Shown: piece by piece, positions 5,198 through 34,762 of the stretch
Numbering within the stretch: the stretch's first letter is position 1
Layout: every line of letters starts with the position of its first letter
Assembly: GCA_903840505.1 (NCBI GenBank)
Contig: CAIMGI010000187.1
Coordinates: forward strand, 18,812 to 82,811
Direction of reading: 5' to 3'
Origin: an uncultured Bacteroidota bacterium
GTDB taxonomy: Bacteria; Bacteroidota; Bacteroidia; UBA4408
DNA: 64,000 nt
The notes under the pieces: model-generated
What the model saw: only the letters and a program-made list of their open reading frames with translations
Database searches by the model: none
Told to the model about the DNA's origin: nothing
Translations under genes and position numbers: made by a program

Positions 5198-8100
5198 ATG
5201 AGATGTAAATTGCTTTTGTTCTTGTTTTTATTTTCTGTGAATAGTTATTCGCAGGAATATCAATTTCAAAATATTACCACCAAAGACGGCCTAGCGTCAA
5301 ATAATATCAATTGTATTTTCAAGGATTCAAAGGGGTTTATGTGGTTTGGTACCGGTGACGGAGGTGTTTCGAAATACGATGGAAAGGCATTCACAAATTA
5401 CAACACCGAATCTGGACTACCAAATAATGATGTGCGCTGTGTGTTTGAAGATAAAGAAGGTAAACTCTGGTTCGCAACCCATGGTGGTGGGGTGTCCATT
5501 TTTGATGGGAAAACATTTTCTTCCCTCGATGAAAAGTCAGGGCTTTCAAATAACAGAGTTTATGTTATTTCTCAAGACCCATCAGGAACAATGTGGTTTG
5601 GTACATGGGGTGGGGGACTTTGCAGTTATAATGGGAAGAAATTTACAACCTATTCAGAAAAAGAAGGAGGGCCACGGTTCGTTATAAGTATGTTTTTGGA
5701 TAAGAAGGGTAGACTTTGGGTTGGTAGCCATCTTGGAAAGTTAATTTGTATAATAAATGGGAAGTTTAAAATCTATGGCAAGGAAGACGGATTTAACGAG
5801 AATGCGGTTTGGGGCTTTGATGAGGACTCAAAAGGAAATATTTGGTTTACTTCATACGGCACGAATTTTGCCAAATACGATGGGGAAAAGTTTACATATA
5901 TAACAAATGAAGGTGGGGCATTATCTCGAGCCATTCCGATAAAAATAGATAGCCAAGATAATTTATGGATAGGGCATGCGGAAAAGGGGGGAGTGGAAAA
6001 ATGGAATGGAAAAACATTATTAAGATTGGGCTCCTCCAATGGCTTGCTAAATCCAACCAATTGGAGTTTATATATTGATAAATCAAATACAGTTTGGATT
6101 GGCTCTTCGGGAGGAGGCGTGTTTAAATTAAAATCGGAGTCGATTGTTCGTTATGGTTCTTTGCAAGGTTTAACAGACAATGTTGTTAATACAATTACCC
6201 AAGACAAAAATAATAAAATTTGGATCGGAACAGACACTGCGGGGCTTTTTTATCTTGAAAACAACACTTTTAAGTCATTACTCCCTCTGCAAAAAATTTC
6301 CAAAGCCCCTGTTGCTACCCTTTTGATGGATCGAAAAAGCACCTTGTGGATTGGCCTATTCGGACTTAATTATTCCAATCAAATAGGAGGCATCTTCACA
6401 TTCGATGGAAAAAAAATTAATATTGTTGATACAAACAACCTAAACAGCTCTTGTCATCCTATAGTAAGTTTCGAAGACTCGCATGGAAATATTTGGTTTG
6501 GAAACTGGTTGAGCGGAGGTGTAAATAAATGGGATGGAAAATCCTTTTTCGGTTTAAACAATAAAAAAATATATGGTCGTGATATTACCGCAATAAATGA
6601 AGATCGATACGGCAATATGTATTTCGCTACTCATGGAGCTATTCTTAAAATGGATAAAAACGACTCCGTTAAAGCTATTAAAAAAGAAGATGGGCTTGCT
6701 GATATTGAAACCTCTCAAATATTTCGGGATAAATATAATCTACTTTGGTTTTGTCATGCAAAAGGTGGCGGTATTTCGATACTTGATGTTGATAAAAAAA
6801 AGTGGCGGTATTTAACAACAAAAGAGGGATTACTTGACAATAAGGTGTTATCAGTTGTTGAAGATAAAAACGGGGATGTATGGATTGCGACAGGAAAAGG
6901 ACTGAATAAAATTATTCGACCATCAAAAGATAATTTTGTTTTCGAAAAGATTGACAATGGCACATCTCTTTCTGGCCAAGGGTGCATAAATTTATTTGTA
7001 GATAGAAATAATCAACTATATGTTGCTGCAGAAAATAATGGGCTTTACAAAATAAACATAAATAATTTACCACGAAATATGACCGCCCCAATATTAAGTA
7101 TAACAACAGTTTATTTAAATTACAAAAAAATAAATTGGCAAAAAGGAGATTCTTTGCAAAATGCAGGAATAACTTTTTCTACAAAAGTAAACAGCACAAT
7201 CCCAGAAAAAATTATTTTCAACTACGATCAAAATACCATTGGGTTTGATTTCGTTGGGATTGAACACTACTCTCCAGAAAAAGTTACTTACAGTTGGATA
7301 TTAGAAGGGTTGGAAATGAAATGGTCTCCATTTTCAAGTATCAATCATATTAATTACTCTAGCCTACCTTCCGGCAAGTATAATTTAAAAGTGGTTGCGA
7401 AAAATGAATTTGGTGTTATGGCTAAACCCCCACTTGAATATGAATTTACTATTGTTCCTCCGTTTTGGAAAACAAATTGGTTCTATGTTTTATGCGCATT
7501 AGTTTTTATTGCTGCTATTTTCTTTTTTATTAGAGCAAGGGAAACCAGTTTACGAAAGCAAAAACAATTTTTGGAGAAGAAGGTTAAAGAACGAACAAGC
7601 GATTTAATTGCCGCAAATGAGTCTATTAATATTCAGAAAACTGAACTTGAAGAAAAGAATAAAGAGGTGATGGATTCAATACACTACGCAAAAAGGCTTC
7701 AAGAAGCAATCCTTCCTTCTGTTAAAAAAGTGAATGAGCTATTACCTAATAGCTTTATCATTTATCAGCCCAAAGATATCATTGCAGGCGATTTTTATTG
7801 GATGGAAAAAACGGACGATTTAGTTTTGTTTGCGGCTGCTGATTGCACGGGACATGGTGTTCCTGGTGCATTGGTAAGTTTTGTTTGTAGCAATGCATTG
7901 CATAAAGCAACAATGGAAATGGGGGTTGTTGAGCCTGGAAAAATTTTAGATGCAGTGAGAGAATTTGTTATTGAACAGTTTTCGAAAAGCGAAAGTGATG
8001 TGAAAGATGGAATGGATATTTCTTTATGTTCCTTAAACACCAACACAAATGAACTAATTTGGGCTGGTGCAAACAATCCTTTGTGGATTATAAGAAACAA

Positions 8101-8413
8101 CGAAACAATAATTGAAGAATTTAAACCAAACAAACAGCCTGTTGGGAAATCTGAGAATGCTGTATTGTTTACCTCTCATAAAGTTCAATTGTACAAAGGC
8201 GATTCTTTATATATTTTCAGTGATGGTATTGTCGATCAATTTGGAGGAGAAAGTGGTAAAAAATATAAAAGCAGTAACCTAAAAAAATTATTGTGTAGTA
8301 TTTCCAATTCACCACTTGACAAGCAAAAGGAAATTATTGAAACCAATTTTTCGCAATGGAAAAAGGGATTTGATCAAACCGATGACGTTTGTTTTATAGG
8401 GATAAAAATTTAA
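5198..8413 (+). CDS. Beta-propeller sensor protein (two-component regulator propeller repeats + Y_Y_Y) with TM helix and C-terminal PP2C/SpoIIE serine phosphatase domain
   Basis: About 13 repeats of GL.SN.V..I.QD..G.LWFGT.GGG. A single TM helix (WFYVLCALVFIAAIFFFI) is followed by a coiled coil and then SpoIIE-like motifs (GDFYW...DCTGHGVPGAL...DG..DQ). Confidence 0.85.
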   Translation: MRCKLLLFLFLFSVNSYSQEYQFQNITTKDGLASNNINCIFKDSKGFMWFGTGDGGVSKYDGKAFTNYNTESGLPNNDVRCVFEDKEGKLWFATHGGGVSIFDGKTFSSLDEKSGLSNNRVYVISQDPSGTMWFGTWGGGLCSYNGKKFTTYSEKEGGPRFVISMFLDKKGRLWVGSHLGKLICIINGKFKIYGKEDGFNENAVWGFDEDSKGNIWFTSYGTNFAKYDGEKFTYITNEGGALSRAIPIKIDSQDNLWIGHAEKGGVEKWNGKTLLRLGSSNGLLNPTNWSLYIDKSNTVWIGSSGGGVFKLKSESIVRYGSLQGLTDNVVNTITQDKNNKIWIGTDTAGLFYLENNTFKSLLPLQKISKAPVATLLMDRKSTLWIGLFGLNYSNQIGGIFTFDGKKINIVDTNNLNSSCHPIVSFEDSHGNIWFGNWLSGGVNKWDGKSFFGLNNKKIYGRDITAINEDRYGNMYFATHGAILKMDKNDSVKAIKKEDGLADIETSQIFRDKYNLLWFCHAKGGGISILDVDKKKWRYLTTKEGLLDNKVLSVVEDKNGDVWIATGKGLNKIIRPSKDNFVFEKIDNGTSLSGQGCINLFVDRNNQLYVAAENNGLYKININNLPRNMTAPILSITTVYLNYKKINWQKGDSLQNAGITFSTKVNSTIPEKIIFNYDQNTIGFDFVGIEHYSPEKVTYSWILEGLEMKWSPFSSINHINYSSLPSGKYNLKVVAKNEFGVMAKPPLEYEFTIVPPFWKTNWFYVLCALVFIAAIFFFIRARETSLRKQKQFLEKKVKERTSDLIAANESINIQKTELEEKNKEVMDSIHYAKRLQEAILPSVKKVNELLPNSFIIYQPKDIIAGDFYWMEKTDDLVLFAAADCTGHGVPGALVSFVCSNALHKATMEMGVVEPGKILDAVREFVIEQFSKSESDVKDGMDISLCSLNTNTNELIWAGANNPLWIIRNNETIIEEFKPNKQPVGKSENAVLFTSHKVQLYKGDSLYIFSDGIVDQFGGESGKKYKSSNLKKLLCSISNSPLDKQKEIIETNFSQWKKGFDQTDDVCFIGIKI

Positions 8414-17189: not shown

Positions 17190-17206
17190 CTATTTTTGGA
17201 AAAAAA

Positions 17207-18235: not shown

Positions 18236-18313
18236 AAAATTGTTCAACAAATGTAGTAATTTGACTTATACTTTAATCGAATAAAAAGGATAGGGGGCGA
18301 ACAGTAACTTGGC

Positions 18314-18724
18314 TTAAGCCATTTTAAAATTCAATTCCACTTTTGAGCCATTGTCGTGGAAAACAACATTGTCGGCTAAGTGACCCATTAAAAACACGCC
18401 TCTACCATTCGGCTTTTCGATATTTTCAGGGTTTGTAGGGTCGGGAATAATGGTATGGTCAAAACCGGCTCCTTCATCTTTTACCAAAAAGGAAAGCATA
18501 CCATTTTTTGGTTTAAATTCAATGGTTACTTTTTTTGAAAGGTCGTTTTTATTGCCGTGTAAAATGGCATTGTTAACAGCTTCGGTAAGTCCTACCAAAA
18601 TGTTTCCATAATGATCCGTACTTACTTTGTATTCATCGCATACCTCTTCCACCAATTTCTCTACCAGCACTAGATTTTCGACCTTGGAACTGAAACTTAT
18701 TTTATGATTTTGCATTACTGCCAT
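18314..18724 (-). CDS. RsbW/SpoIIAB-like anti-sigma regulatory factor (HATPase_c serine kinase)
   Basis: 136 aa with the N-box (EAVNNAILHG), the G1 box (VKDEGAGFD) and the G2 box (GRGVFLMGHL), laid out as in RsbW. Confidence 0.8.
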   Translation of the reverse strand: MAVMQNHKISFSSKVENLVLVEKLVEEVCDEYKVSTDHYGNILVGLTEAVNNAILHGNKNDLSKKVTIEFKPKNGMLSFLVKDEGAGFDHTIIPDPTNPENIEKPNGRGVFLMGHLADNVVFHDNGSKVELNFKMA

Positions 18725-18737
18725 TTGGCAAATGTAT

Positions 18738-21700
18738 TTATTTTGTAACGTTATTAAAATAATCCGTTACCTTATTTTTATAAAAAGTATTTAACGAAGG
18801 AGGGACAGTTTTTAACAATTCGGTTTCTTTCATTTTAAGTCTGTTATACTCATTAAACAGATTAAGGTTACTAAAATTTTCAATATTCGACTCTTTCGAC
18901 TCTCTTTTTTCGTCTTGATCCCTTTCTCTCTCTGCTTTTTCAGACTCTAACAATCTTGTTAAAATTTCTTCTTGGCGCATCATTGTTTCTTGAGTAATGG
19001 TTTTATTTACCAAATCGGTCTCGGTTTTCTCCATCTGCTCGGCCAATTTTTGCATGTTTCCGTTGCCTTGTTTGCCATCTTTGTTCATTTCATCACCCAT
19101 TTTCTGTAATTCTCTTCTGAGGGCCTCCTGTTGGGCTGCTAAGCGTGCAAATTGCTCACTGGTACTATTCTTTCCGTTTTTACCATCCTTACCATCTTTG
19201 CCTTCCTTGCCATCTTTTTTTCCATTCGGATTTTTCATTCCCTCCTTCAGCTTCGCAATTTGCTCGTTTATTTGTTGTTGCATCGATTTCATAGTAGATG
19301 CGGAAGGTTTTTGACCTTTTCCACCCGGTTTTTTACAACTTCCACTGCCTTCTTTAGCAGGTTTTTTTTGCATTTGCTGTTGCATTTGATTGAGTGCTTC
19401 GCTTAACATCAAGGCAAGGTTATTTACACCTGTCATCACATATTGTTGTCGCCCTGCTGCCACTTGAGTTTGTCTGTCGGCAATGTCGGCTATCGCTTTT
19501 TCCATATTGGCGTTTATTTCGCTTATTTCGCGGTTTACCACTGCCGATATTTGTGGCTGACGTTTACTCAATGCAAACAAGGAATCTTCTATCATTTTCG
19601 AATCGTCCTTTATTTTCTTTTGCTGACGAGCAATTTCAACGTATTTTGGATTAACCCTGTCAATATTATTGGTTTGTTTCATAAGCTCTTCTTGAGCAAA
19701 AGAAACATTGATGAGGTTTTCTAATATTTCACGCAGGGCATTCATATCCTCTTCTTGCTCTTGTTGTTCCATTTGCTGCTGCATACTTTTCATTTCCTGT
19801 GAAAGCTGATCCATTTTTTCACCCGCCTTTTTTTGTGATTTTGCAGCTTGTTGTTTTTTGCTTTCGCTGTTGTTTTTATTCTCGTTAAGTTGCTCTGAAC
19901 TTTTTTCTTGTTCCTTCGATATTTCTTGTTGCAATTCCTCGGTGTTCTTCATTTCATTGGGTTGTTCCAACTCAGCATTTTTCTTTTTTAAGTCTTCCAA
20001 CTCTTTTTTTACCTCGTCAAACTCTTTGTTTAGCTTTTCTTGTTCTTTGTTCAGCTCCTTGCTATCACTTTTCTTCTCTTCCGTTTTCTCTGCTAATTTT
20101 TTTTGATCTTCTGCCAACTTATCCAATTTTTCGGTTGTTTCACCCATCTTTTTCTCAAATTCCAACTGCTTGAAAATTTCCAATGAACGGTCGAGCTCTT
20201 TTTCCATATCCTTGTTATCCAACTTCATTTTTTCCAATTGCTCCTGAATTTTCTCTTTGTCCATTTTACTGAGCAATTTCTCCAATTCTTTGAATTTCTC
20301 TTTCATTTCATCGGTCATAATTTGCTCAAAAAGCTTTTCTAACTGTTGCTGTTTCTCCAACAATTTTTCATCAGGTTGTTTGAATTCATTTTCCTTTTTG
20401 TTGTTCAAGCTGTTCTGCTTTTCAATGTTTTCAACATCTTTTTGCAATTGTTTTTGTTTTTCAAGAAGGTCTTTTATTTTTTTCAATTCATCGTAGCTCA
20501 GTATCTTTTTCTCCAACATTTTTTGATTGATATCCGCTAGTTCTTTTTGTAAGTCCTTTGCTTTCTGTATACTTTCTTGAATGTCCTTTTTTAGCTCCTT
20601 GTTGTTTTTCTCGCTGTTCTTTGCCAATTCACTTAAAGTAGGGGCCTTGTATACCATTCTTTGTGTGCGAGCCGATTTGTTGCCATTTACACCATCGTTA
20701 TCAAATACTTCAAAGTAATATTCTATTTCATCGCCCGGTTGAATGTTAAATGAAGTAAGATCCCAATAGTGGAAAAAATTGTCTTGTGTAATTTGTTTGT
20801 TTAGTCCTAGTTGCTGACTCACCAAACGCCCTGATACAGATTTGTTGGAATCATTTTCAGTTAAAAATTTATAATTGAAAGCAAGTTTTGAAAACCCGTA
20901 ATCGTCTTTAATTTGACCTTTGAAATAAATGCGTTGGCTTGATATAGAATCGGGACGTTCTTCCACCTGAATGCTTGGGTACATATCGGGAATTACATTT
21001 ATGGAATAGCTTATTGAGTCGCCACTTTTAAGAAATTCATTTGCGGTGGTGATGTTATACGTTTTATTATTAAACAGTTGTGATGAATATGAGAAAACAT
21101 TGTTGTTAGGGTGGTCCAATGTAATAATGGTATCAACAAAACCCATTCTTAAAATACGTGAATGTTGTGTGTTGAATGTCCAGCGTACTTTTGTGCCGGC
21201 AGGAATTACCATATCTCCGGTGTTTGAAAGGACTTCGTCTTTTTTACCGACATAGTTCGGGTAATCTAATTGTACTTGAAAGCCAAGCATCAATGGGTTT
21301 GGAAGGGCTGTAATTTCATATTCCTTCGAATAATATCCATCAGCAAACAAACGAAAGCGAAGTGTTTTTTGTATGTTTTTGAACACATAACGAAATTTCA
21401 CCGCATTTTCTTTGTTGAGAGAATATTCGTTTTCGCCCACCTCAATGTAAGCGTTTGCAGGGATTTCATTTCCGCTTACTTTAATGTTTAATTCAAAATC
21501 TTGTTGCTGTATAGCCTGCATCGATTTATTGAGTACCTCAAAGCGAAAAGGGGACTCTTTTTCGTAATACACGGTGTGGTTGAACAGTCTATTGCTTGGG
21601 TCGGTGATGAGGTTAGGAAAAAATGTAAGCAAACAAAGTAAAATAAACACAGGAATAAAGGCATATTTTACATATTTCGAATTTTCCTTTAAGTCAATAG

Positions 21701-22133
21701 CCGAAGTAAAAGGAATTGGCTTTAGTTCGGCAATACGTTGATTGATGCTTGCTTGTACAAGGTTGGCATTGTAGTTAGATTGCTGTTGAAGTTGCAATAC
21801 GTTTAGCAGCTTATCTTGCACATTGGAAAAATGGCTGCCGATAATTTCGGCTGCTTGCTGATGAGAAATGATGTTGCCAAATCGATTAAGTTTAAGCAGA
21901 GGAATAACAATTAGGTTAATCAGTATACCAATGTTGAGTAAGATAAAAAGGTAGAAGAGGATGGTACGTGTAGTTACTCCAAAATGGGCAAAATATTCGA
22001 GAAGGGTTACCGCCAAAAAGAAAAGAAGGAGTGAGGATATAGCATACAATACTCCCCGAATGAGTTGGTTTTTGTAATACTTTCGTATAAACTCATCCAG
22101 TTTTTGTATTAGTATGAGATAGTTGCTTGCCAC
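18738..22133 (-). CDS. Large membrane-anchored coiled-coil protein (DUF4175-like)
   Basis: 1131 aa, starting at a GTG. The N-terminal region carries three predicted TM helices and a beta-rich domain. A ~550-aa K/E/Q-rich coiled coil follows, with a G/K-rich tract (GKKDGKEGKDGKDGKNGKN). The family assignment is from memory and is tentative. Confidence 0.55.
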   Translation of the reverse strand: MASNYLILIQKLDEFIRKYYKNQLIRGVLYAISSLLLFFLAVTLLEYFAHFGVTTRTILFYLFILLNIGILINLIVIPLLKLNRFGNIISHQQAAEIIGSHFSNVQDKLLNVLQLQQQSNYNANLVQASINQRIAELKPIPFTSAIDLKENSKYVKYAFIPVFILLCLLTFFPNLITDPSNRLFNHTVYYEKESPFRFEVLNKSMQAIQQQDFELNIKVSGNEIPANAYIEVGENEYSLNKENAVKFRYVFKNIQKTLRFRLFADGYYSKEYEITALPNPLMLGFQVQLDYPNYVGKKDEVLSNTGDMVIPAGTKVRWTFNTQHSRILRMGFVDTIITLDHPNNNVFSYSSQLFNNKTYNITTANEFLKSGDSISYSINVIPDMYPSIQVEERPDSISSQRIYFKGQIKDDYGFSKLAFNYKFLTENDSNKSVSGRLVSQQLGLNKQITQDNFFHYWDLTSFNIQPGDEIEYYFEVFDNDGVNGNKSARTQRMVYKAPTLSELAKNSEKNNKELKKDIQESIQKAKDLQKELADINQKMLEKKILSYDELKKIKDLLEKQKQLQKDVENIEKQNSLNNKKENEFKQPDEKLLEKQQQLEKLFEQIMTDEMKEKFKELEKLLSKMDKEKIQEQLEKMKLDNKDMEKELDRSLEIFKQLEFEKKMGETTEKLDKLAEDQKKLAEKTEEKKSDSKELNKEQEKLNKEFDEVKKELEDLKKKNAELEQPNEMKNTEELQQEISKEQEKSSEQLNENKNNSESKKQQAAKSQKKAGEKMDQLSQEMKSMQQQMEQQEQEEDMNALREILENLINVSFAQEELMKQTNNIDRVNPKYVEIARQQKKIKDDSKMIEDSLFALSKRQPQISAVVNREISEINANMEKAIADIADRQTQVAAGRQQYVMTGVNNLALMLSEALNQMQQQMQKKPAKEGSGSCKKPGGKGQKPSASTMKSMQQQINEQIAKLKEGMKNPNGKKDGKEGKDGKDGKNGKNSTSEQFARLAAQQEALRRELQKMGDEMNKDGKQGNGNMQKLAEQMEKTETDLVNKTITQETMMRQEEILTRLLESEKAERERDQDEKRESKESNIENFSNLNLFNEYNRLKMKETELLKTVPPSLNTFYKNKVTDYFNNVTK

Positions 22134-22204
22134 TGAAATGCTTTTATAATAACAAATATAGCAATTTTAATACCGTTTTGTTGTTAAAATAGGTTAAGAA
22201 TGTG

Positions 22205-23665
22205 TTATCGAATTTTAGCCTCTAACCAATCGTTGTAGTTAATTATATCCTTATCGGCAGCCTCTTTTGAGGATATGATGGATAAGAACTCCGTGATGTT
22301 TTCATTTAGGTTTTTATTCTTAACCAAATTGTTTGCGTCAAGCATTAGTGCCATAATTTCCGCTAACAGCTTTTCTCTTTTATAATCTTCGTCTTGCAAA
22401 ATGGTTGAAAATGTTTTGCTCGTTTGAGCAAGGAGTGTTTCCAAATATTCCATATCGTTTAATTCAAAACGAATAATCATTTCGGCAAAGGAGAATTTTA
22501 AACGCATAGCCTCATCCAAGTTTTCGTAACTTTTTTGAAGACGCATTTTAACAATGTTTTTAAGTGCTTCCTTGTATTTTTTTAAATCGAATGAGATTAC
22601 GGCAAGGTTGCCATAAATGAAAACAATGTATATGGGCAATTGCTTTATGGCTTTCTCTTCTTTAGCTTGTTCTAATATTTCAATGGCTTTTTCTTTATCG
22701 CTTGCAGTATAATTTATCACAAGGGAATTGTAGTAATAAAATAAATATTTTTCTTTCATCAATCCTGAATATTCATCCATTGCTTCCTTCAGAAGGTTGG
22801 TGTATTGGAGCGATTGTTTAATTTTCCCATTTTTGAACAATGAGTTAATGAGGTAGGTAAGCATTTGCAGCTTCGTTTCGTGGTTCGATTTGTTAAACAA
22901 GTTTTCTTTTAGAAAAGAGCGATAGGTTGTGAGTAGGTATTTTTCGAGGGATTTGAAGTCGTGCTGTTGCAGTAATATACGACTCAATGCGTGGTATATT
23001 TTGAAGCGTAATTGTGGACTTTGTTTTATATCGTCACTCTGGGTGTATTCATTGATTGTTTTCTTCATTACTTCCAACACTTGTGTATTGTGTGCCGAAA
23101 AATTTTGAGACACCAATATTCGGTACCTTAAAACTGCTAACACATCATCAATTTCTTGTAAACGAAGTAATTGTTTTCTGTTTTCTCTGCGTTTCGAAAT
23201 AAATTGTTCGGGGTTTATGGAGTCTGTTTCTTGCGCCAGCTTTATGTATTCCCCATATATTGTATCGGTAAGTTCGGCATTGTGTAATTCGATCGATTTT
23301 TTTTCGGCTTTTTTTAAATAATAAAAGGCAATATCAAACTGCCGTTTTTGCTGGTATATGCGCGAAAGGGCCAAGTAGTTTTGCGATTCGGCAAAAGCAT
23401 TGTTGTCGAAATAATGTACACTCATGCTTTTCCCTATGTCCTCTAAAAGCCTATTCTTTAGTCGGTACAGCACATTTTTATCATCGTGATTGTAAAGCTG
23501 TAAGCAAATTTTTTCTTCATCGTATTCCGGAAATTTTTTCCGAACAAGGTCAAACAGTTGAACATCTTTTCGGTCGTTGTGGTTGTTGGTTCGTGCGAGG
23601 TAAAGTTTTAAATGACGCACTTCTTCTTTGCTCATTAATCCGATTACTTGGTTAAATATATTCAT
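22205..23665 (-). CDS. Hypothetical all-helical (TPR-like) protein
   Basis: About 487 aa from the internal ATG (MNIFNQ). Composition is helical and repeat-like, with no signal peptide. It sits 71 bp upstream of the DUF4175-like gene on the same strand. Confidence 0.5.
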   Translation of the reverse strand: MNIFNQVIGLMSKEEVRHLKLYLARTNNHNDRKDVQLFDLVRKKFPEYDEEKICLQLYNHDDKNVLYRLKNRLLEDIGKSMSVHYFDNNAFAESQNYLALSRIYQQKRQFDIAFYYLKKAEKKSIELHNAELTDTIYGEYIKLAQETDSINPEQFISKRRENRKQLLRLQEIDDVLAVLRYRILVSQNFSAHNTQVLEVMKKTINEYTQSDDIKQSPQLRFKIYHALSRILLQQHDFKSLEKYLLTTYRSFLKENLFNKSNHETKLQMLTYLINSLFKNGKIKQSLQYTNLLKEAMDEYSGLMKEKYLFYYYNSLVINYTASDKEKAIEILEQAKEEKAIKQLPIYIVFIYGNLAVISFDLKKYKEALKNIVKMRLQKSYENLDEAMRLKFSFAEMIIRFELNDMEYLETLLAQTSKTFSTILQDEDYKREKLLAEIMALMLDANNLVKNKNLNENITEFLSIISSKEAADKDIINYNDWLEAKIR

Positions 23666-23759: not shown

Positions 23760-24449
23760 ATGAAAAAGTTAAAAACGCTACTCTTTTGGTCTTTTATTTT
23801 AGCTTCAATGCAGCTAAAAGCACAGGTAAACATTGGGATTGATACCGTTTACAATTTTTTAACCCAAGTTAATAATTACCAAACGGTAAGTTATACCGTT
23901 CATATTAAAAACTATGGCCCTGATACCTTGTTTAATGGAAACTTAACTTTGTATACAGCTGTAGATACAGGAAATGCACTACATACAATTAAAACGGACA
24001 CTTCGCTTTCCGGCATTGCAGTTTTTCCACCTAACACAACTTTAACAATAAATGATAGCATCAGTTTTGTTGGCGGTGGCGGAAATACATTTAGGTTGAA
24101 TGGCGGTAATGTTATTGTTATATGGCCACAGGCTATAGGAGCAAATCTTATTCAATCGTATACAAATACTGTTTTAATAACGCACATTGAGGGAATAGGC
24201 GAAATTAGAATTGAGAAAAACAGTATAGCAGCTTGGCCTAATCCAACTAAGGAAAAGGTATTCTTAACAATTTCGGATCCAAAAACTACTATTGAAAGGG
24301 TAAGAATGTTCGATTCAAAAGGAGCCGAAGTGGTATATGAAGAGCATTCTAAAATATTGGATGTTAAGCAACTACCAAGCGGTGTGTATATTCTTTCGGC
24401 TACTTTAAGCAGCGGGGAAGTAAAAACAATAAAGGTAATCAAGGAGTAA
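23760..24449 (+). CDS. T9SS C-terminal-domain (type A sorting domain) secreted protein
   Basis: Signal peptide (MKKLKTLLFWSFILASMQLKAQ). The C-terminal ~80 aa (AAWPNPTKEKVFL...LPSGVYILSA...KVIK) match the Por secretion-tail pattern. Confidence 0.75.
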   Translation: MKKLKTLLFWSFILASMQLKAQVNIGIDTVYNFLTQVNNYQTVSYTVHIKNYGPDTLFNGNLTLYTAVDTGNALHTIKTDTSLSGIAVFPPNTTLTINDSISFVGGGGNTFRLNGGNVIVIWPQAIGANLIQSYTNTVLITHIEGIGEIRIEKNSIAAWPNPTKEKVFLTISDPKTTIERVRMFDSKGAEVVYEEHSKILDVKQLPSGVYILSATLSSGEVKTIKVIKE

Positions 24450-24451
24450 TT

Positions 24452-25372
24452 TTATCCCTTCTGATAATTTTGCATTTCCTTTGGGAATAAACCTTTTTGA
24501 GGCTTTCTTCTGCGTTTTCTTTTCTTGGATTTGTTTTTCGATTTTTTGTATTCAAAAGTATCATTTGTTGGAACAACCACATCTTTTCTGCCTTTCCAAA
24601 ATCGCCATTGTAAGCGTTTTTTGTGCCTTTCTTTTTTTGAACTGGAAAAGCTGCTTCCTGTTTCGGTTGCAATAACCACATCCTTTTTTTCTTTCCAAAA
24701 CAGTAAACGAGTCTTCTTTTTATGACGTTCTTTTTTTGAACTCGAAAAGCTATTGTCGGTGTTGGTTGCAATAACCACATTTTTTTTACCTTTCCAGAAT
24801 TGCCATTGCCATTGTTTTTTATGGTGTTCTGTTTTTGAACCGCTTCTTAAAGGATTGCCTTTTACTTTTCTAGAACTGCTTCTGTCTCCCAATGTCATTT
24901 TTACATCGGTATTTTGTTGTTTCTTTTTTCCAAACCTTACAGAAAATCCATTTTTATTTTCTTTTCCTTTTCCTCCTTTTGTTTCTGCATTTAGTTTATT
25001 TGAACGTACGCGTCTAGATTTACTCCTGTCGCCCAAGGTCATTTTAACATCGGTATCTTGTGTTTTGTTTTTTCGAAGTTTTAGTGAAAATGGTCTTTTG
25101 TTTTCTTTTGCCTTCCCACCTTTGTTTTCGGCCCTTAATTTATTGGACCGTACACGTTTGGATTTACTTCTATCTCCCAATGTTATTTTTACATCGGTAT
25201 CCTGTTTTTTGTTTCTGCCAAAGCGAACAGAAAAAGGTCTTTTATTCGATTTTACTTTCTCCTTTTTAGTGTTGATTTTAAAATTAGAAGAATCTGAAGA
25301 TTTATTCTTATTAATAGCACAGGAATGGATAAGTATAGCACATAAAAGAAGAATTGCTACGGGGTATCGCAT
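24452..25372 (-). CDS. Highly basic tandem-repeat lipoprotein
   Basis: Signal peptide plus lipobox (LLLCAILIHSCA). Three copies of a ~48-aa K/R-rich repeat (KRPFSVRFG.NK.QDTDVK.TLGDRSKS.RVRSNKL.AE.KGGK.KEN) are followed by three copies of a ~37-aa repeat (SFSSSKKERHKK...FWKGKK.VVIATNTDN). The DNA shows the same tandem periodicity. Confidence 0.65.
   Translation of the reverse strand: MRYPVAILLLCAILIHSCAINKNKSSDSSNFKINTKKEKVKSNKRPFSVRFGRNKKQDTDVKITLGDRSKSKRVRSNKLRAENKGGKAKENKRPFSLKLRKNKTQDTDVKMTLGDRSKSRRVRSNKLNAETKGGKGKENKNGFSVRFGKKKQQNTDVKMTLGDRSSSRKVKGNPLRSGSKTEHHKKQWQWQFWKGKKNVVIATNTDNSFSSSKKERHKKKTRLLFWKEKKDVVIATETGSSFSSSKKERHKKRLQWRFWKGRKDVVVPTNDTFEYKKSKNKSKKRKRRRKPQKGLFPKEMQNYQKG
24490..25290. 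repeat. Coding tandem DNA repeats (3 x ~111 bp, then 3 x ~144 bp) inside the basic lipoprotein gene
   Basis: Near-identical repeat units are visible directly in the sequence, for example ...ggttgcaataaccacat...ttccaaaa... and ...ctcccaatgtcatttttacatcggtat.... Confidence 0.8.
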
Positions 25373-25451
25373 ACTGGTTTTGAATATCCTTATTATAAAA
25401 GAAACCCTCACTTACTGTAAGCGAGGGTTTCTTTTATATTTAATTTATGTG

Positions 25452-26207
25452 TTATCTATTACCGCTTTGCTTATCCCTCATTTCTTGTCTTCTTTTGGCA
25501 CGTTCTTCGGGAGTCATTGAGTTTTGGTCGGCACCATTCATTCGACTACCACCAACAGGTGCGCCCTCTGTTTTTGTGTAGCCTGCAGGAATATCAAATA
25601 CTTCTTTGGCAATTGATTTTTTTTCAATTGTAACTAATTCCATTGTCATATCACCATCTCTCTTCCCTTTAACTATATATTTTACGGGAAATCCATCCAC
25701 TCCGGCATCAATAAGCGATTTTTCAATTTTGCTAATGTTTACTCTTTGGTTATTATTATAAGCTTCTTTGTAATTTTGGTAGTCTACAATTTCTTTAGTA
25801 TTCCATAATTCAGTAATAGTACCGTCATTAACAGATTTTACGAGAATGTGTTTACAAGTGTATCCCAATATTTTTTCTTCTCCTAAATTCTCCAAGGTAT
25901 AATTTCCGTTTTCAGTATCTTTTTTCACAGGACCTTCACTGTAGGTTCTGTAGGTTTCATTTATAGTAAATAAAACTTCAGGATTGTCCATTTTTGTTAT
26001 GGTTATCATCTTCATAGGCTCAGGCAATTGTGGTATAGAAACAGTCATATCTGTTTTTTTACCTATGCTTGAAAAATAAGATGTAACACTACCGTTTGCG
26101 CCCATAGCGGATGAAAATTTCATTTCAATAACAGTTCCATTTTGAGCGAAAAGCTGCGAAGTTGCAAATAGGAATGTAAAAAGGGCTGTAAAAATGTATT
26201 TTTTCAT
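25452..26207 (-). CDS. Secreted hypothetical protein
   Basis: Signal peptide (MKKYIFTALFTFLFATSQLFAQ) and a basic C-terminal tail. It resembles Bacteroidota DUF-type periplasmic proteins, but the function is unknown. Confidence 0.55.
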   Translation of the reverse strand: MKKYIFTALFTFLFATSQLFAQNGTVIEMKFSSAMGANGSVTSYFSSIGKKTDMTVSIPQLPEPMKMITITKMDNPEVLFTINETYRTYSEGPVKKDTENGNYTLENLGEEKILGYTCKHILVKSVNDGTITELWNTKEIVDYQNYKEAYNNNQRVNISKIEKSLIDAGVDGFPVKYIVKGKRDGDMTMELVTIEKKSIAKEVFDIPAGYTKTEGAPVGGSRMNGADQNSMTPEERAKRRQEMRDKQSGNR

Positions 26208-26285
26208 TTTGTTTTTTTGACTCTGTTTATTCAAAGATACTAAATTAAAGATAATTAAACCGAATGGGGTAAATTATCAGTTGAA

Positions 26286-28898
26286 TTATTTAGAATAATT
26301 GTTTGTAAAAAACTGCTCGTACTCCGCTAACTTTTTGGATACATATAGGGCCGAATAATTTGCATCACTCACTATAAATAACTTATAATTCTTCTTGTCA
26401 AGTTTTTTAATTAAAACATGATTCGTAAGCTGATTATAGTATAACATCGCTTTTGTCTTATTTTCAAAAGCTTTCACAAAAATCATTTTGTTTTTATCAT
26501 CGTACACCAAATCTTCTGTTTTTAAATGTGATGTTTCATAAAACTCATTGTTAAAGTTAGATAAGCCTGTTTTTAAGTCCGAAATTTTAATGTTTTTATT
26601 GTCAGCAATAATTACAATAAATTGTTCGGCATTGGCATCAAATGTAAAGAGCTCTTTCTCCTGTATGGTATCGGGTTTAATCTCTCCGGCTTCTTTTTGC
26701 GCTTTTATCACATCCAGCATAGCTTGTGCGGATGGTGTTACTTCACTTTTTGGATAATTAAGTATTAGTTGTTGTAAGCTTAGTTCGAAATCATTTTTGG
26801 TTTGCGTTTTCCCAACAGCCAAGGCATACAAGTATTCGAATTTAGGTTGCAAGTCGCTTTTGCCTACAATGCTATCAACAGCACGAACATTGTTTTTTAC
26901 CTGAACGTAATTGCCCGCTAAATATAAATTATAGGTTTCTTCGTAGTAGTTCTTTGCTTTGTTTTTCGATTGGAGTATATCCAAATTAAAGTTTGGATTC
27001 TTGATGATTTGTGCATACTCACTGTTGGGGTAATTGTTTAGCAATATATCTTTGTATTTTTTCGCTTTCTCTTTTTCTTTCATCGACAAGTAAATTCTAT
27101 ACAATTGGTAATAGCATTCCAATTCGTGTTTGTTTTTAGGGTATTTTTTTAAAAGGTCATCATAGGTTTCTGCCGCTTTTTCGTAATTCTTTAATTGCTC
27201 TTTATAAATTCCACCCAGTTCATAATATGCTTCTACAATTTTAGCGTTTGAAGCAAGCATCATTGAATCGGTTAATGGTATATCCTTTAAATAGCTCAAC
27301 TTGTCACGCATTTTTGGTGCTTTATCCAAACTGTCTTTTCCTTGTTTAAGCGAATCTATAGGGTTTGGATTATCAAAATCCGAGAAGCCTATTTGCTTGT
27401 TACTTCTTCGCCAGTTATCCTCCAGTTTACGCACTCCCCATTTTTTGGAAAAGTCGCTGAATCCTGCACTTAAATTGCCTTGGTTGTAAAAATACCAATT
27501 GCTTCCTGAGCCTTGGTCGTTGCTTCCTCCCGCATTATTTGCATTCAGGTTTAGGTTATTATTCAATTGGCTTGCCTCCTCCTCCTCCTCTTTCTTTTTT
27601 CTTTCGACCTCAATAGCATCGGCCATAATTTTATCAATCAGGGCATTTCTTTCACTATCGCTTAATTTTGCAATTTTTTGCAAGCTGTCTTGGTTAGAAA
27701 TAATATTTAAATTTTTTACCAAATCCGCTAAACTATTTTTCTTGTCTACTATTAAATTATAGTTCGGATAGTTTTTATCCAACAGCGAAACGGCACTATC
27801 GTAATACGATTCGGAGGTTTTATAATCGGGAATATCAAAATATAAATCAGCAATTTTTAAATTAGATAAAGCTTTTTGTCGGGTGTTATTTGTACTTGTT
27901 GCAATGGACTGTTTGAGGTATTTAATGGCTACAGGAATATTATTTTCCTTTATGTAAATTTCGGCAAGCGCATAATTAATTTGATCTAAATATTCAATGT
28001 TTTTAACATCCTTCAGCATTTTTGTCAGTTGCTTTTTAATATCGGCACTGTTGCCGTTTGCAATATCATAAGACTTCGCCAAACTTATTCGGGCATTAAA
28101 CTCCATTACATAGGGAGGGTTTCGTTTAATAACCTGTTTGTAGTTGGCAGTTGCATTTTTAAGTAAACCTTGTTTTTGGTACAATTGAGCCAAAATGTAC
28201 ATATAGCGTGTTCGTTGCTTTTTACTTTTGCTCAATGCAATGGCTTTAGTCAAGTGACTTATTCCCAACTGATAATCGGCTTGCTTGATGTAAAAATCAG
28301 CTAATATGGCCGACAATTCAGCATCGTATTTTGCAGGAAATTTCTTGTCGTTTTTAATAACGTCCATTAAACCTTGCGATTTTGTAAAAAGCCCCATTTC
28401 ATTATAGGTACGGAGCATCCACATCCAGGCTTCATATTTCGTATTTTCCTTTTTAAATTGGGCGGATACGTATTCAAATACTTCCAGTCCGGCAAAATAA
28501 TCGTGTTTGTAAAAATGCGACCTTCCTATAAGTATGTACGTATCGTCAATCCAGTTACAGTACTCAACTCCTTTTAAAAGAATAGAGTGTCTTTCAATAA
28601 CCATAGACCCCTTCTTGAATGTTTTTTCAAGTTCAGTGGAAATGCTTTGGGCTTCTTTTAAATTTCCATAAACAAATACAGGAAGTATTTGGTCGTAATC
28701 GTCAATATGTGTTTTGTCTAGTTTTGCGGTGCCTTCGTTAATACTTTCGCGGGCATAAAAAAAGCCGTTATAGCGGGAAGTAAGGTTGTGGTAACTGCGT
28801 GTAGCAAATGTGTTTTTCTTAGTACTGCAACCATTTAGTATGATTGCAATGCCGAACAGGATTGTGAGCAATGCTATATGTAGGCAATTTTTTTTCAA
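26286..28898 (-). CDS. TPR-repeat lipoprotein, SprE/PorW-like (gliding motility / T9SS component)
   Basis: 870 aa with a TTG start and a lipoprotein signal (LNGCS). The whole protein is made of TPR-like helical repeats. Its size and architecture match F. johnsoniae SprE. The assignment rests on architecture and on neighbourhood with gldBC. Confidence 0.45.
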   Translation of the reverse strand: MKKNCLHIALLTILFGIAIILNGCSTKKNTFATRSYHNLTSRYNGFFYARESINEGTAKLDKTHIDDYDQILPVFVYGNLKEAQSISTELEKTFKKGSMVIERHSILLKGVEYCNWIDDTYILIGRSHFYKHDYFAGLEVFEYVSAQFKKENTKYEAWMWMLRTYNEMGLFTKSQGLMDVIKNDKKFPAKYDAELSAILADFYIKQADYQLGISHLTKAIALSKSKKQRTRYMYILAQLYQKQGLLKNATANYKQVIKRNPPYVMEFNARISLAKSYDIANGNSADIKKQLTKMLKDVKNIEYLDQINYALAEIYIKENNIPVAIKYLKQSIATSTNNTRQKALSNLKIADLYFDIPDYKTSESYYDSAVSLLDKNYPNYNLIVDKKNSLADLVKNLNIISNQDSLQKIAKLSDSERNALIDKIMADAIEVERKKKEEEEEASQLNNNLNLNANNAGGSNDQGSGSNWYFYNQGNLSAGFSDFSKKWGVRKLEDNWRRSNKQIGFSDFDNPNPIDSLKQGKDSLDKAPKMRDKLSYLKDIPLTDSMMLASNAKIVEAYYELGGIYKEQLKNYEKAAETYDDLLKKYPKNKHELECYYQLYRIYLSMKEKEKAKKYKDILLNNYPNSEYAQIIKNPNFNLDILQSKNKAKNYYEETYNLYLAGNYVQVKNNVRAVDSIVGKSDLQPKFEYLYALAVGKTQTKNDFELSLQQLILNYPKSEVTPSAQAMLDVIKAQKEAGEIKPDTIQEKELFTFDANAEQFIVIIADNKNIKISDLKTGLSNFNNEFYETSHLKTEDLVYDDKNKMIFVKAFENKTKAMLYYNQLTNHVLIKKLDKKNYKLFIVSDANYSALYVSKKLAEYEQFFTNNYSK

Positions 28899-29009
28899 CA
28901 GTGTAATAACTCTAAAATTTCAAAAATAGTATGCTCATTACCTTCATAAATTATAAAACAAAAAACAGGCATTGCTTGACAACACCTGTTTGTAAAATGC
29001 AGCTGTTCT

Positions 29010-29777
29010 TTAAAAAATTACTCCAACAGTAAGTGAAATAAAATTACTTGTCGCTTTTTGAGTAATAGCGGCATTTGTTCCAGATCTTAAATCGGGAGAG
29101 TTTTTCTTTAAAGTGTTTGTAAAACCGTTGCTGTAGTTAACTCCGGCAACCAATACCGTGCTTCCTACTAATCCATACTCTACACCAAGACCAATATTCA
29201 GTGCTACTCGGAAAAGACCAACATCTTGTTTTGCCTCCACTTTTGCTATGCTCGACAAGGTGCTTTTATTGTTTGTAAAATTCAAATAGCCTGTATCCGT
29301 AGCACGCGCCTTGGCTCTAACCCCAAGGTCGAAACCAAATTGACCATAATATGCCATTAGCCCAATTTCCTTTGTTTTCATTTTCAAGGAAAGTGGCACA
29401 TTTATGTATTGCAATTTATATTCGCGTTTCTTGATAAGAAATGCAGTTGCTGGGTCACTTAAATAATCTTTTCCATTCAAAGAGCGATAAACGCTGTCGG
29501 TATAGTTTAATCCACCTCCTGCATAGGTTACTTCCAAACCGGTTAAAAATGAGGCTATGTCATTTATTCTGAACTCAGTAATAAGTCCGTATCCAAATTT
29601 CATTACTGTTTTTCCTCTTTCGAATCGGGTATCATCGGGTTTAAGCCAACATACCGAAGGTGCAGCCTTTAATCCGAAACGGAATTTTTTCGCAACATCA
29701 CTCACAGGAATCGCATCTTGCGCAAAACTAGCAATTGTACTTATTGTTATTAATAGTAAGGTAACTATCTTTTTCAT
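29010..29777 (-). CDS. Outer-membrane beta-barrel protein (PorT/OmpA-like porin family)
   Basis: Signal peptide, alternating hydrophobic beta-strands, a C-terminal aromatic residue (VIF), and a length of 255 aa. Confidence 0.5.
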   Translation of the reverse strand: MKKIVTLLLITISTIASFAQDAIPVSDVAKKFRFGLKAAPSVCWLKPDDTRFERGKTVMKFGYGLITEFRINDIASFLTGLEVTYAGGGLNYTDSVYRSLNGKDYLSDPATAFLIKKREYKLQYINVPLSLKMKTKEIGLMAYYGQFGFDLGVRAKARATDTGYLNFTNNKSTLSSIAKVEAKQDVGLFRVALNIGLGVEYGLVGSTVLVAGVNYSNGFTNTLKKNSPDLRSGTNAAITQKATSNFISLTVGVIF

Positions 29778-29798
29778 ATTTTTGCTTTAAAGTTTATA

Positions 29799-30848
29799 AT
29801 GGTGTTATCTACAAAAGTAAGCATAATTTCAAGTTTAAGAAAGGGATTGCCCCGAATATCGGTTTTTATGTTTTTGCTGTGTTGTTCGTGCAAGCAAAAT
29901 AAGCTGGACGTAAACGTTTCCAACATAAAACTTTCGGTTGATTGCAAGCGTTTCGATTATGATTTGTTTAGCCTCAGATGCCCAGTAGAAGCTGCCGGTA
30001 TAAATACTTTAAGAAATAAGTACGGAAATTTTGTTGACCGATTTGGTGCAAACATCATAAAAATTGGTTCTCCTGAGTCGCCTTCTTATGCAGCTAATTT
30101 GAGTAATTTTTTATCCGACAACGATATGCGTACTGTTTATGGGGATGTTAAAAGTCAATACCCAAATACAGATGAATTAAACAAAGAGCTTACCGATGCT
30201 TTTAAACATTACAAATATTATTTCCCAAATAAAACTATTCCGCAGGTAGTAACCTATGTTTCGGGTTTTAATTATGCCATTGTTGCCGATGATACTACGT
30301 TGGGAATTGGCTTGGATATGTACTTAGGAGCAGATTATAAATATTACCAACTGATGCAGTTGCCAAAATATAGAACAGCATTAATGCGCAAAGAGCGCAT
30401 TGCCATTGATGCGCTCAAATCGTGGATTTCAACTGAGTTTGAAGCCGACATTACAAAGACCGATTTGCTTTCACAAATTATTCACGAGGGTAAAATTATG
30501 TATGCCTTGGATGCTTTGTTTCCTGCTGCCCACGATTCACTTAAAATGGGCTATTCGAAAAAGCAAAACGATTGGGCAAAAGTGAGTGAAGCTCAAATAT
30601 GGGCATACTTTATTGATAAAAAATTATTGTTCTCCACCAATTATGGAGAGAATATGAAATTCCTGAACGATGCTCCTTTTACTTCGGGTTTACCACGCGA
30701 TTCGCCTCCTAAAATTGGCGTGTGGTTGGGTTGGCAAATAGTGAGGGCCTATATGAATACTAAATCCGACATTTCGTTGGAAGCATTGTTTACTGAAAAA
30801 GACGCACAAAAAATACTTTCACAATCAAAATACAAACCTGCTAAATAA
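29799..30848 (+). CDS. gldB: Gliding motility lipoprotein GldB
   Basis: A ~330-aa lipoprotein (lipobox LLCCSC) immediately upstream of a gldC-like gene, as in the F. johnsoniae gldB-gldC operon. The start is uncertain because the gap to the divergent gene is only ~21 bp. Confidence 0.6.
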   Translation: MVLSTKVSIISSLRKGLPRISVFMFLLCCSCKQNKLDVNVSNIKLSVDCKRFDYDLFSLRCPVEAAGINTLRNKYGNFVDRFGANIIKIGSPESPSYAANLSNFLSDNDMRTVYGDVKSQYPNTDELNKELTDAFKHYKYYFPNKTIPQVVTYVSGFNYAIVADDTTLGIGLDMYLGADYKYYQLMQLPKYRTALMRKERIAIDALKSWISTEFEADITKTDLLSQIIHEGKIMYALDALFPAAHDSLKMGYSKKQNDWAKVSEAQIWAYFIDKKLLFSTNYGENMKFLNDAPFTSGLPRDSPPKIGVWLGWQIVRAYMNTKSDISLEALFTEKDAQKILSQSKYKPAK

Positions 30849-30856
30849 AAGCTATA

Positions 30857-31195
30857 ATGAAAACTTCCGAAATAAATTTCACGATTAAATTAGATCAAAA
30901 TAACCTACCCGAAAGCATAGATTGGGAAGCAACCGATTCGGGTGTGGATGGTAAAATACCAAGCAAAGCAGTAATGTTAGCCGTGTGGGACCCAAAAGAA
31001 AACAACACCTTGAAAATAGATTTGTGGACAAAGGATATGATGGTGGATGAAATGAAATTGTTTTTTCATCAAACCTTGCTAAGTATGGCGGGCACCTTTG
31101 AACGTGCTACAGGCGAAGATAAAATGGCGGGAGATATGAAGGATTTTTGCCAGTATTTTGCCGAGAAAATGAATTTGTTGGAGAAGAAGAATTAG
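30857..31195 (+). CDS. gldC: Gliding motility-associated protein GldC
   Basis: 112-aa cytoplasmic protein. Its conserved blocks (IDLWTKDMMVDEMK, FFHQTLLSMA, DFCQYFAEK) are characteristic of GldC, and it lies 8 bp after gldB. Confidence 0.65.
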   Translation: MKTSEINFTIKLDQNNLPESIDWEATDSGVDGKIPSKAVMLAVWDPKENNTLKIDLWTKDMMVDEMKLFFHQTLLSMAGTFERATGEDKMAGDMKDFCQYFAEKMNLLEKKN

Positions 31196-34758: not shown

Positions 34759-34762
34759 GTTG

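Follow-up and report, generated by a model that had tools for sequence, protein, structure and literature searches.

The window analysed here is a 64,000-nucleotide stretch of contig CAIMGI010000187.1 (assembly GCA_903840505.1, positions 18,812 to 82,811) from an uncultured Bacteroidota bacterium. At its centre of interest are three minus-strand genes that encode a small RsbW-like kinase, a 1131-residue membrane protein of the DUF4175 family and a protein resembling tetratricopeptide-repeat (TPR) proteins. An earlier note on this DNA had read the three as one operon. The open reading frames (ORFs) that it listed, with gaps of 71 and 13 bp, agree exactly with ours, but the operon itself does not hold across genomes: the DUF4175 and kinase genes are linked as a conserved two-gene module of the class Bacteroidia, and the TPR-like gene stands next to them but belongs to another unit. 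In window coordinates, the genes and gaps are as follows.

18314–18724 (−), RsbW-like kinase gene, ORF of 136 aa
18725–18737 (−), 13-bp gap from the DUF4175 stop codon to the start codon of the kinase gene
18738–22133 (−), DUF4175 gene, ORF of 1131 aa, GTG start
22134–22204 (−), 71-bp gap between the TPR-like and DUF4175 genes
22205–23665 (−), TPR-like gene, ORF of 486 aa, ATG start

Because each of the three proteins has hundreds to thousands of full-length homologues, the ORFs are not chance reading frames, and an identical 1131-residue DUF4175 protein is already on record (P0001). The GTG start of the DUF4175 gene is required by a conserved N terminus that is common to all homologues. A longer reading of the TPR-like ORF, to 23833, is formally possible; we favour the start at 23665 because homologues measure 481–488 residues. 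Neither intergenic gap holds a plausible additional ORF, and none of the three proteins matched the PADLOC defence models at E ≤ 0.01.

Conservation of the DUF4175–kinase gene pair

We scanned GTDB, at one genome per species, with an alignment of DUF4175 homologues as the query. The scan returned 80 loci (45–57% identity) from Flavobacteriales, Sphingobacteriaceae, Vicingaceae, Lentimicrobium, other Bacteroidales and many unclassified Bacteroidia metagenome-assembled genomes (MAGs). Synteny was inspected over flanks of ±8 kb, and conserved neighbours and partners were counted over 160 related loci. With tblastn and clustering of ORFs, a kinase orthologue was located behind DUF4175, in the same orientation, in 63 of the GTDB loci, and a hidden Markov model (HMM) applied to six-frame translations places a kinase downstream in 65 of the 79 informative ones. 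Kinase-bearing loci span Flavobacteriales, Sphingobacteriaceae, Chitinophagales-type genomes and some Bacteroidales MAGs. Of the 63 ORF-called pairs, 61 have the kinase gene immediately after DUF4175 in the same orientation, the exceptions being two loci with an inserted gene (L042 and L058). The gap that separates the DUF4175 stop codon from the kinase start codon measures −4 to 12 bp in 53 of the 63 pairs, and in 14 it is exactly −4 bp, with the stop and start codons sharing four bases. Such spacing, together with the overlaps, is consistent with co-translation, and the pair is probably translationally coupled.

The linkage is equally apparent from the side of the kinase. A reciprocal metagenome scan with the kinase alignment returned 80 loci (46–63% identity), and in every one of them the C-terminal end of a DUF4175 gene lies no more than 400 bp upstream on the same strand. 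Beyond the pair, conservation extends to ybeY (88/160 loci), mnmG (56/160), a gene for a class-I methyltransferase and, in 14 loci, one for a large sensor histidine kinase. Spacing is loose here, with kinase and ybeY −44 to 1023 bp apart. Both ybeY and mnmG are gone from the neighbourhood in the window and its relatives, and the DUF4175–kinase pair is intact.

Both short gaps contain a match to TAnnTTTG, the consensus of the −7 promoter element in Bacteroidetes, and a further match lies downstream of the three genes.

22153–22160 (−), −7 box match TATATTTG, in the 71-bp gap, 20 nt before the DUF4175 GTG start
18729–18736 (−), −7 box match TACATTTG, in the 13-bp gap, 4 nt (CCAA) before the kinase ATG
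18248–18255 (−), −7 box match just upstream of the asparaginase start codon

The first two are the only minus-strand matches within 18314–23665; over the window as a whole the motif is not enriched, with 97 matches against 105 expected. Judged by its match to the consensus, TATATTTG is likely the −7 box of a separate promoter for the DUF4175–kinase pair. The match before the kinase, TACATTTG, may be due to chance; if functional, it would give a leaderless or internal transcript. A scan for sigma-70 promoters and terminators, a method ill-suited to Bacteroidetes, remained at background level.

The TPR-like gene has a different partner, which encodes a type IX secretion system (T9SS) cargo protein.

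23760–24449 (+), Por_Secre_tail (T9SS cargo) gene, 229 aa, divergent partner of the TPR-like gene at 22205–23665 (−)

This divergent pair is kept in every genome examined (L003, L010, L012, L014, L018, L072 and L165–L167). The three window genes do share a strand and a gap of only 71 bp, and seven genomes of one clade, the window included, have the TPR-like/T9SS-cargo pair within ~2 kb of DUF4175 and the kinase, in three arrangements. Even so, an operon with the TPR-like protein as its third component is very improbable, and it fails the test of co-occurrence in other genomes that the earlier note had itself set. Both the TPR-like and Por_Secre_tail genes are absent from the closest relatives (L082–L084; DUF4175 91% and kinase 83% identical), whose gene order is otherwise that of the window (GldC, GldB, outer-membrane protein (OMP), PorW/SprE, DUF4412, K-rich protein, DUF4175, kinase, asparaginase). 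Within ±8 kb, the TPR-like gene occurs in only 6 of the 80 GTDB loci and each time on the opposite strand, in five of them convergent and directly downstream of the kinase and in one ~2.2 kb upstream. On three megabase-scale contigs it is unlinked to DUF4175 and divergent from a ~230-aa Por_Secre_tail gene; on a contig of 1.53 Mb, the TPR-like gene (P0306) and DUF4175 (P0012) are ~100 kb apart. Because the TPR-like gene is absent in colinear relatives, on the opposite strand or unlinked elsewhere and separated in the window by a −7 box match in the 71-bp gap, we place it in a unit of its own, outside the conserved module and probably associated with its divergent T9SS-cargo gene. The arrangement in the window can be derived from that of L003 by inversion of the DUF4175–kinase pair. 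The TPR matches of the protein itself, whose family counts 871 homologues, are weak and all sub-threshold. Some sources label its homologues as an AraC-like DNA-binding protein, a label that is unverified; the TPR-like gene may encode a regulator with the Por_Secre_tail gene as its target.

Properties of the two proteins

The small protein matches PF13581 (HATPase_c_2) at 82.6 bits (cut-off 27.4; E 3e-23), with residues 11–131 aligned to model positions 1–125 of 127. Its ATP-binding boxes align with the motifs of SpoIIAB and RsbW: the N box comprises E48, N52 and H56-G57-N58, the G1 box D83-x-G85-x-G87 and the G2 box G107-x-G109. None of the three boxes varies among 20 diverse orthologues, and all are conserved in a set of 64, as is the PDP(T)-P-EN motif of the lid region. 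These features bear out the earlier description of a RsbW/SpoIIAB-type kinase and indicate an intact ATP-binding site in a kinase-competent GHKL protein. The family profile gives full-length matches to RsbW (6m36, E 7.6e-14) and SpoIIAB (E 5e-11). The equivalog models score far under their cut-offs (46 vs 135 bits for SpoIIAB TIGR01925; 41 and 31 vs 145 and 155 bits for RsbW NF003144 and TIGR01924), which by sequence puts the kinase in the RsbW/SpoIIAB superfamily as an equivalog of neither. No signal peptide or transmembrane (TM) segment was found in its 136 residues, and the protein is cytoplasmic and soluble. In the PDB, the profile matches best to "SenB" (9qih), in its C-terminal catalytic domain; this structure accompanies a paper on LvrB, a histidine kinase of Leptospira, and no functional lead was gained from it.

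The DUF4175 protein is divided as follows, with the TM helices assigned from hydropathy and from an AlphaFold 2 (AF2) model whose confidence is given as the predicted local distance difference test (pLDDT).

22053–22133 (−), residues 1–27, N-terminal helix, positively charged, predicted cytoplasmic, motif KLDEFIRKYYKNQL.RG
21894–22052 (−), residues 28–80, TM helices 1 and 2 with a short outside loop between them (hydropathy; AF2 helices 3–49 and 53–84)
21672–21893 (−), residues 81–154, predicted cytoplasmic loop with conserved columns, candidate kinase docking site
21600–21671 (−), residues 155–178, TM helix 3 (hydropathy and charge distribution; AF2 helix 148–171)
20640–21566 (−), residues 190–498, three tandem Ig/FN3-like beta-sandwich domains (ALPNP at 276–280, FEVFDNDG at 474–481)
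19368–20639 (−), residues 499–922, K/E/Q-rich amphipathic helices (~11 long helices, pLDDT 55–80)
19164–19367 (−), residues 923–990, two disordered low-complexity linkers around one helix (GSGSC933-KKPGG; G/K tract at 971–989)
18738–19163 (−), residues 991–1131 and the stop codon, C-terminal helical region (ETETDLVNK, ILTRLLE-EKAE-ER, ELLKTV, KV--YFN)

Hydropathy and AF2 agree on the three N-terminal TM helices that had been proposed, at ~28–49, 58–80 and 155–176. From these helices and the charge distribution (the positive-inside rule), residues 1–27 and the loop 81–154 are predicted to be cytoplasmic and the ~950 residues after position 178 to lie outside; a periplasmic placement is favoured because Ig/FN3 folds are typical of extracytoplasmic regions. 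The predicted cytoplasmic face is also where conservation is highest. Residues 1–27, which carry five K/R against two D/E and are helical in the AF2 model, form the best-conserved segment of the protein (65–68% identity across distant clades), followed by the loop (55–57% across clades) and then by the C-terminal region, residues 991–1131 (52–55%, with many invariant columns); elsewhere identity is 41–49%. Conserved columns of the loop include G86, S90, A94, IIG99-x-HF102 and D107-K-L-x-N-x-LQL115, with S90 as its only near-invariant Ser/Thr. The loop is modelled at low confidence (pLDDT 46–60), as short helices that do not resemble a STAS domain. The full-length AF2 model has a mean pLDDT of 68 and a predicted template modelling score (pTM) of 0.39, so its global arrangement is unreliable.

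The beta-rich region named in the earlier note is modelled at residues 196–496, and its Ig/FN3 domains are confident both in the full-length model (pLDDT 80–90) and in a separate domain model (85.4). What had been described as one exceptionally long coiled coil of ~550 residues is indeed helical and K/E/Q-rich (22% K, 19% E and 11% Q in residues 496–800), but it is not continuous: residues 500–1127 (~630 aa) are modelled as ~17 helices of 15–67 residues with short breaks between them, and two disordered linkers interrupt the series. About 340 of the 628 residues of the helical region fall in windows whose heptad-like periodicity exceeds the 99th percentile of shuffles. The helices of residues 499–922 may form hairpins, bundles or an oligomeric coiled coil.

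The G/K tract GKKDGKEGKDGKDGKNGKN and the CKKPGGKG motif were correctly noted before and lie at residues 971–989 and 933–940; pLDDT falls below 50 at residues 924–944 and 968–990. C933 is the only cysteine outside the membrane domain. Together with G929, G931 and P936 it is invariant in 62 close homologues, and a C-x-x-P motif occurs in the linker zone of 77 of 109 diverse representatives, with 23 of the 109 having no cysteine there. Functionally important intermolecular disulfides were recently shown in Bacteroidota for GldK with SprF or PorG, in the T9SS/gliding machinery (PMC12635249), which is a precedent only, without a link to the DUF4175 protein.

The proposed likeness to DUF4175 is upheld by a PF13779 score of 36.4 bits (cut-off 27.3), although the match covers only residues 290–522, or model positions 191–420 of 825. 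The same family is precomputed on most close homologues. In architecture the protein also fits the family, its N-terminal TM helices leading into a long stretch outside the cytoplasm that contains low-complexity tracts. The TIGR02302 score is 15.5 bits (cut-off 394.3), and by sequence the protein is a DUF4175 member and not an equivalog of TIGR02302, the alphaproteobacterial "aProt_lowcomp" family. The Ig region is matched by 2446 representative clusters at E ≤ 1e-3, of which 657 reach E ≤ 1e-30; architecture, domain position and length (~1100–1140 aa) are uniform across the best 150 of the 2446. A PDB sequence search with the DUF4175 profile returned coiled-coil noise only.

Possible roles of the pair in signalling

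We tentatively propose that the DUF4175 protein is an envelope-state sensor or scaffold that docks a partner-switching-type kinase at the cytoplasmic face, with the substrate encoded elsewhere and SpoIIE-type phosphatases opposing the kinase. The two proteins would be made together and form a complex, in which the kinase would dock on the conserved N-terminal helix and 75-residue loop, since these are the only parts of DUF4175 that a cytoplasmic protein could reach. The periplasmic part would report some state of the cell envelope, by which the kinase would be held or active, and the kinase would phosphorylate a partner from another locus, a small STAS-like protein or one of another kind, as in partner-switching pathways. 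A sigma-B/F-type sigma factor is an unlikely output, since Bacteroidota are not known to possess one. Phosphorylation would be reversed by the SpoIIE-type PP2C sensor phosphatases that are abundant in these genomes, PP2C enzymes of this type being the kind that opposes RsbW-type kinases. One candidate is encoded in the window.

5198–8413 (+), SpoIIE-type PP2C sensor phosphatase, 1071 aa, with a signal-like N terminus, beta-propeller repeats (Reg_prop), a Y_Y_Y domain, a TM segment and, at the C-terminal end, a SpoIIE domain (73.5 bits)

This gene, which the earlier note had missed as relevant to the pair, is ~10 kb from the kinase gene and not syntenic with the pair.

Several described systems offer points of comparison. 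The RsbW–RsbV and SpoIIAB–SpoIIAA modules of Bacillus likewise use a single-domain GHKL protein of ~140 residues that has these N, G1 and G2 boxes, and genomes with our pair also carry SpoIIE-family phosphatases; in those modules the kinases are opposed by the PP2C phosphatases RsbU, RsbP and SpoIIE. The present locus differs in that no adjacent STAS antagonist or sigma gene was found and in that the kinase gene is coupled to one for a 1131-residue membrane protein. In behaviour, the nearest analogy may be RsbT and the RsbR/RsbS stressosome. RsbT, a small kinase similar in size to the one described here, is kept on a large sensor scaffold until stress frees it. At our locus, too, a kinase of ~135 residues stands beside a far larger sensory protein that presumably holds it, but this scaffold is membrane-bound, with Ig-like and helical periplasmic parts and without STAS or globin domains, and no RsbR- or RsbS-like genes were found.

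A further behavioural analogy may be drawn with membrane-linked partner-switching systems such as SiaABCD of Pseudomonas aeruginosa, in which the PP2C phosphatase SiaA and the RsbW-like kinase SiaB act with a non-canonical partner, SiaC, and an output enzyme, SiaD; RsbW-type kinases of Gram-negative bacteria can thus have partners not annotated as STAS and outputs other than sigma factors. The C-terminal 280 residues of the phosphatase in the window resemble SiaA (168 bits, cut-off 700). Unlike in SiaABCD, there is no SiaC (DUF1987) or diguanylate cyclase gene nearby, and the phosphatase gene shows no synteny with the pair. The alphaproteobacterial DUF4175/TIGR02302 proteins and AdvA of Acinetobacter baumannii share with our protein the N-terminal TM helices and a long extracytoplasmic low-complexity region, but no kinase partnership is described for them in the papers found. 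AdvA is an essential division protein with an N-terminal DUF4175 match, and a TIGR02302 gene of Rhodobacter sphaeroides is listed in a regulon table as bound by CenR, a regulator of envelope and division. Both links may point to envelope biology, as weak and indirect hints.

Several results weigh against a sensor that hands its signal to a separate partner. Among window ORFs of at least 110 aa there is no STAS-family match, in agreement with the earlier note, and no DUF1987/SiaC-like or sigma-factor gene; the 160 related loci hold no conserved small-protein cluster besides YbeY. A phmmer search for STAS domains in six-frame translations of the loci gave no match, in a weak test with SpoIIAA and RsbV sequences as seeds. 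SpoIIE genes occur in 14 of the 160 loci, directly upstream of DUF4175 in L018, L042 and L169, but their density near the pair, ~8 per Mb, is not clearly above chance. In the kinase, the position aligned with R20 of SpoIIAB, a residue important for partner binding, is a near-invariant Glu; because of this replacement, the partner surface may differ from that of SpoIIAB. The downstream conserved genes ybeY and mnmG are housekeeping genes, and some of the synteny could therefore reflect a gene order that was inherited. Covariation between kinase and DUF4175, calculated as mutual information with average product correction over 98 pairs, showed no enrichment at cytoplasmic positions, in a test that was underpowered at an effective number of sequences of 66.

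Fourteen loci, nearly all of Lentimicrobium/Bacteroidales type, have no kinase within ±8 kb, and in 13 of them ybeY follows DUF4175. The cytoplasmic segments of DUF4175 are as well conserved in this kinase-less group as in kinase-bearing clades, which indicates that the cytoplasmic face is constrained independently of a locally encoded kinase; a degraded face in the kinase-less clade is thereby ruled out, and S90 is not differential. HMM searches of six-frame translations found no kinase remnants in these loci, and none of 138 kinase ORFs was a natural fusion with DUF4175. The kinase-less loci are L031, L032, L037, L043, L055, L065, L067, L068, L070, L074, L079, L080 and L081, together with L066, a separate Bacteroidetes MAG in which ybeY was not found after DUF4175. 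The gene order of the Lentimicrobium/Bacteroidales-type kinase-less clade is DUF4175, ybeY, mnmG, methyltransferase and a histidine kinase of ~1230 aa.

It is conceivable, though unlikely, that regulation runs from the inside out, with the kinase phosphorylating DUF4175 itself, for example at Ser90, and so tuning a structural or assembly role in the periplasm, be it in spacing the envelope, in tethering or as a scaffold associated with division. Such a scheme would do without a STAS partner, which suits the failure to find a STAS gene in the window and related loci, and the strict, reciprocal linkage with its stop/start overlaps would follow naturally, as would Ser or Thr at position 90 in 51 of 55 kinase-bearing sequences. 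The CenR-regulon entry and AdvA fit as well, at the strength of the hints noted above. Yet position 90 is also kept as Ser/Thr in 10 of 13 kinase-less sequences, the low-confidence short helices of the loop are not STAS-like and no covariation signal was found. No characterised HATPase_c_2 kinase is known to act on anything but a partner of STAS or SiaC type. A related idea, to which we give a low probability, makes DUF4175 itself the switching partner: the helix and loop would replace the STAS domain and either sequester the kinase or become phosphorylated, and the periplasmic part would gauge the envelope, possibly via a disulfide at the Cys-x-x-Pro linker. If true, this would be a class-wide envelope sensor in a single membrane protein, which is undescribed for partner-switching kinases.

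The two genes might also be neighbours whose products do not interact, left from an old housekeeping string of DUF4175, kinase, ybeY and mnmG, with the kinase serving an unrelated pathway. The frequency of ybeY and mnmG downstream, the kinase-less clades in which DUF4175 and ybeY stay together and the negative covariation test are all compatible with such a history. We nevertheless regard it as improbable, for the tight spacing of DUF4175 and kinase contrasts with the loose spacing of kinase and ybeY, the pair persists in the window and its relatives after the loss of ybeY and mnmG, and all 80 independently found kinase homologues adjoin a DUF4175 gene.

In the literature, searches for DUF4175, PF13779 and TIGR02302 yielded only AdvA and the R. 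sphaeroides CenR-regulon entry; we found no description of a DUF4175–kinase pairing or of DUF4175 in Bacteroidota, and nothing relevant on RsbW or partner switching in Bacteroidetes or Flavobacterium. What is known of RsbW-type kinases comes almost wholly from Firmicutes and a few Proteobacteria, where they work with sigma factors and soluble STAS partners, and the many SpoIIE-type sensor phosphatases of Bacteroidia belong to largely uncharted pathways. The pair offers a testable entry both to the function of DUF4175, a family of more than 2000 representative clusters, and to the coupling of envelope state with cytoplasmic phospho-signalling in Bacteroidia. Should DUF4175 be the direct partner of the kinase, the concept of partner switching would extend to a transmembrane scaffold.

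Neighbouring genes and strain variation

Beyond the TPR-like and Por_Secre_tail genes, the window continues with a K/R-rich protein and a T9SS/gliding gene cluster.

24452–25411 (−), K/R-rich protein, 319 aa, with a lipoprotein-like N terminus (…LIHSC) and internal tandem repeats, whose periods in the DNA are 99 and 144 bp
25452–31195, T9SS/gliding gene cluster, comprising:
25452–26234, DUF4412
26286–28898, PorW/SprE (NF052312, 685 bits)
29010–29777, OMP beta-barrel
29799–30848, GldB
30857–31195, GldC

A link of the DUF4175–kinase pair to T9SS or gliding was considered and rejected. PorW/SprE, GldB and GldC lie upstream of the pair in the window, but none of the 80 GTDB loci has SprE, DUF4412 or the K-rich protein in its flanks; the adjacency of this cluster to the pair is lineage-specific. 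The 319-aa K/R-rich protein has no Pfam or NCBIfam match, and a shorter version of 258 aa is present in the closest relatives. Farther along, a 1176-aa protein at 34760–38290 (+), with only a weak CarboxypepD_reg match, is followed at 38316–39875 (+) by a 519-aa protein with four FKBP-type peptidyl-prolyl isomerase domains, an unusual pairing.

A strain variant of the locus (L001, 14952–16735) encodes a DUF4175 protein 100% identical to that of the window and a kinase that is only 95% identical. Between its asparaginase and M42 peptidase genes, the variant carries two additional 297-aa Por_Secre_tail genes and a truncated acetyltransferase gene. The window lacks these additional Por_Secre_tail genes at the corresponding place (~17190–17206), a case of local gain or loss of T9SS-cargo genes.

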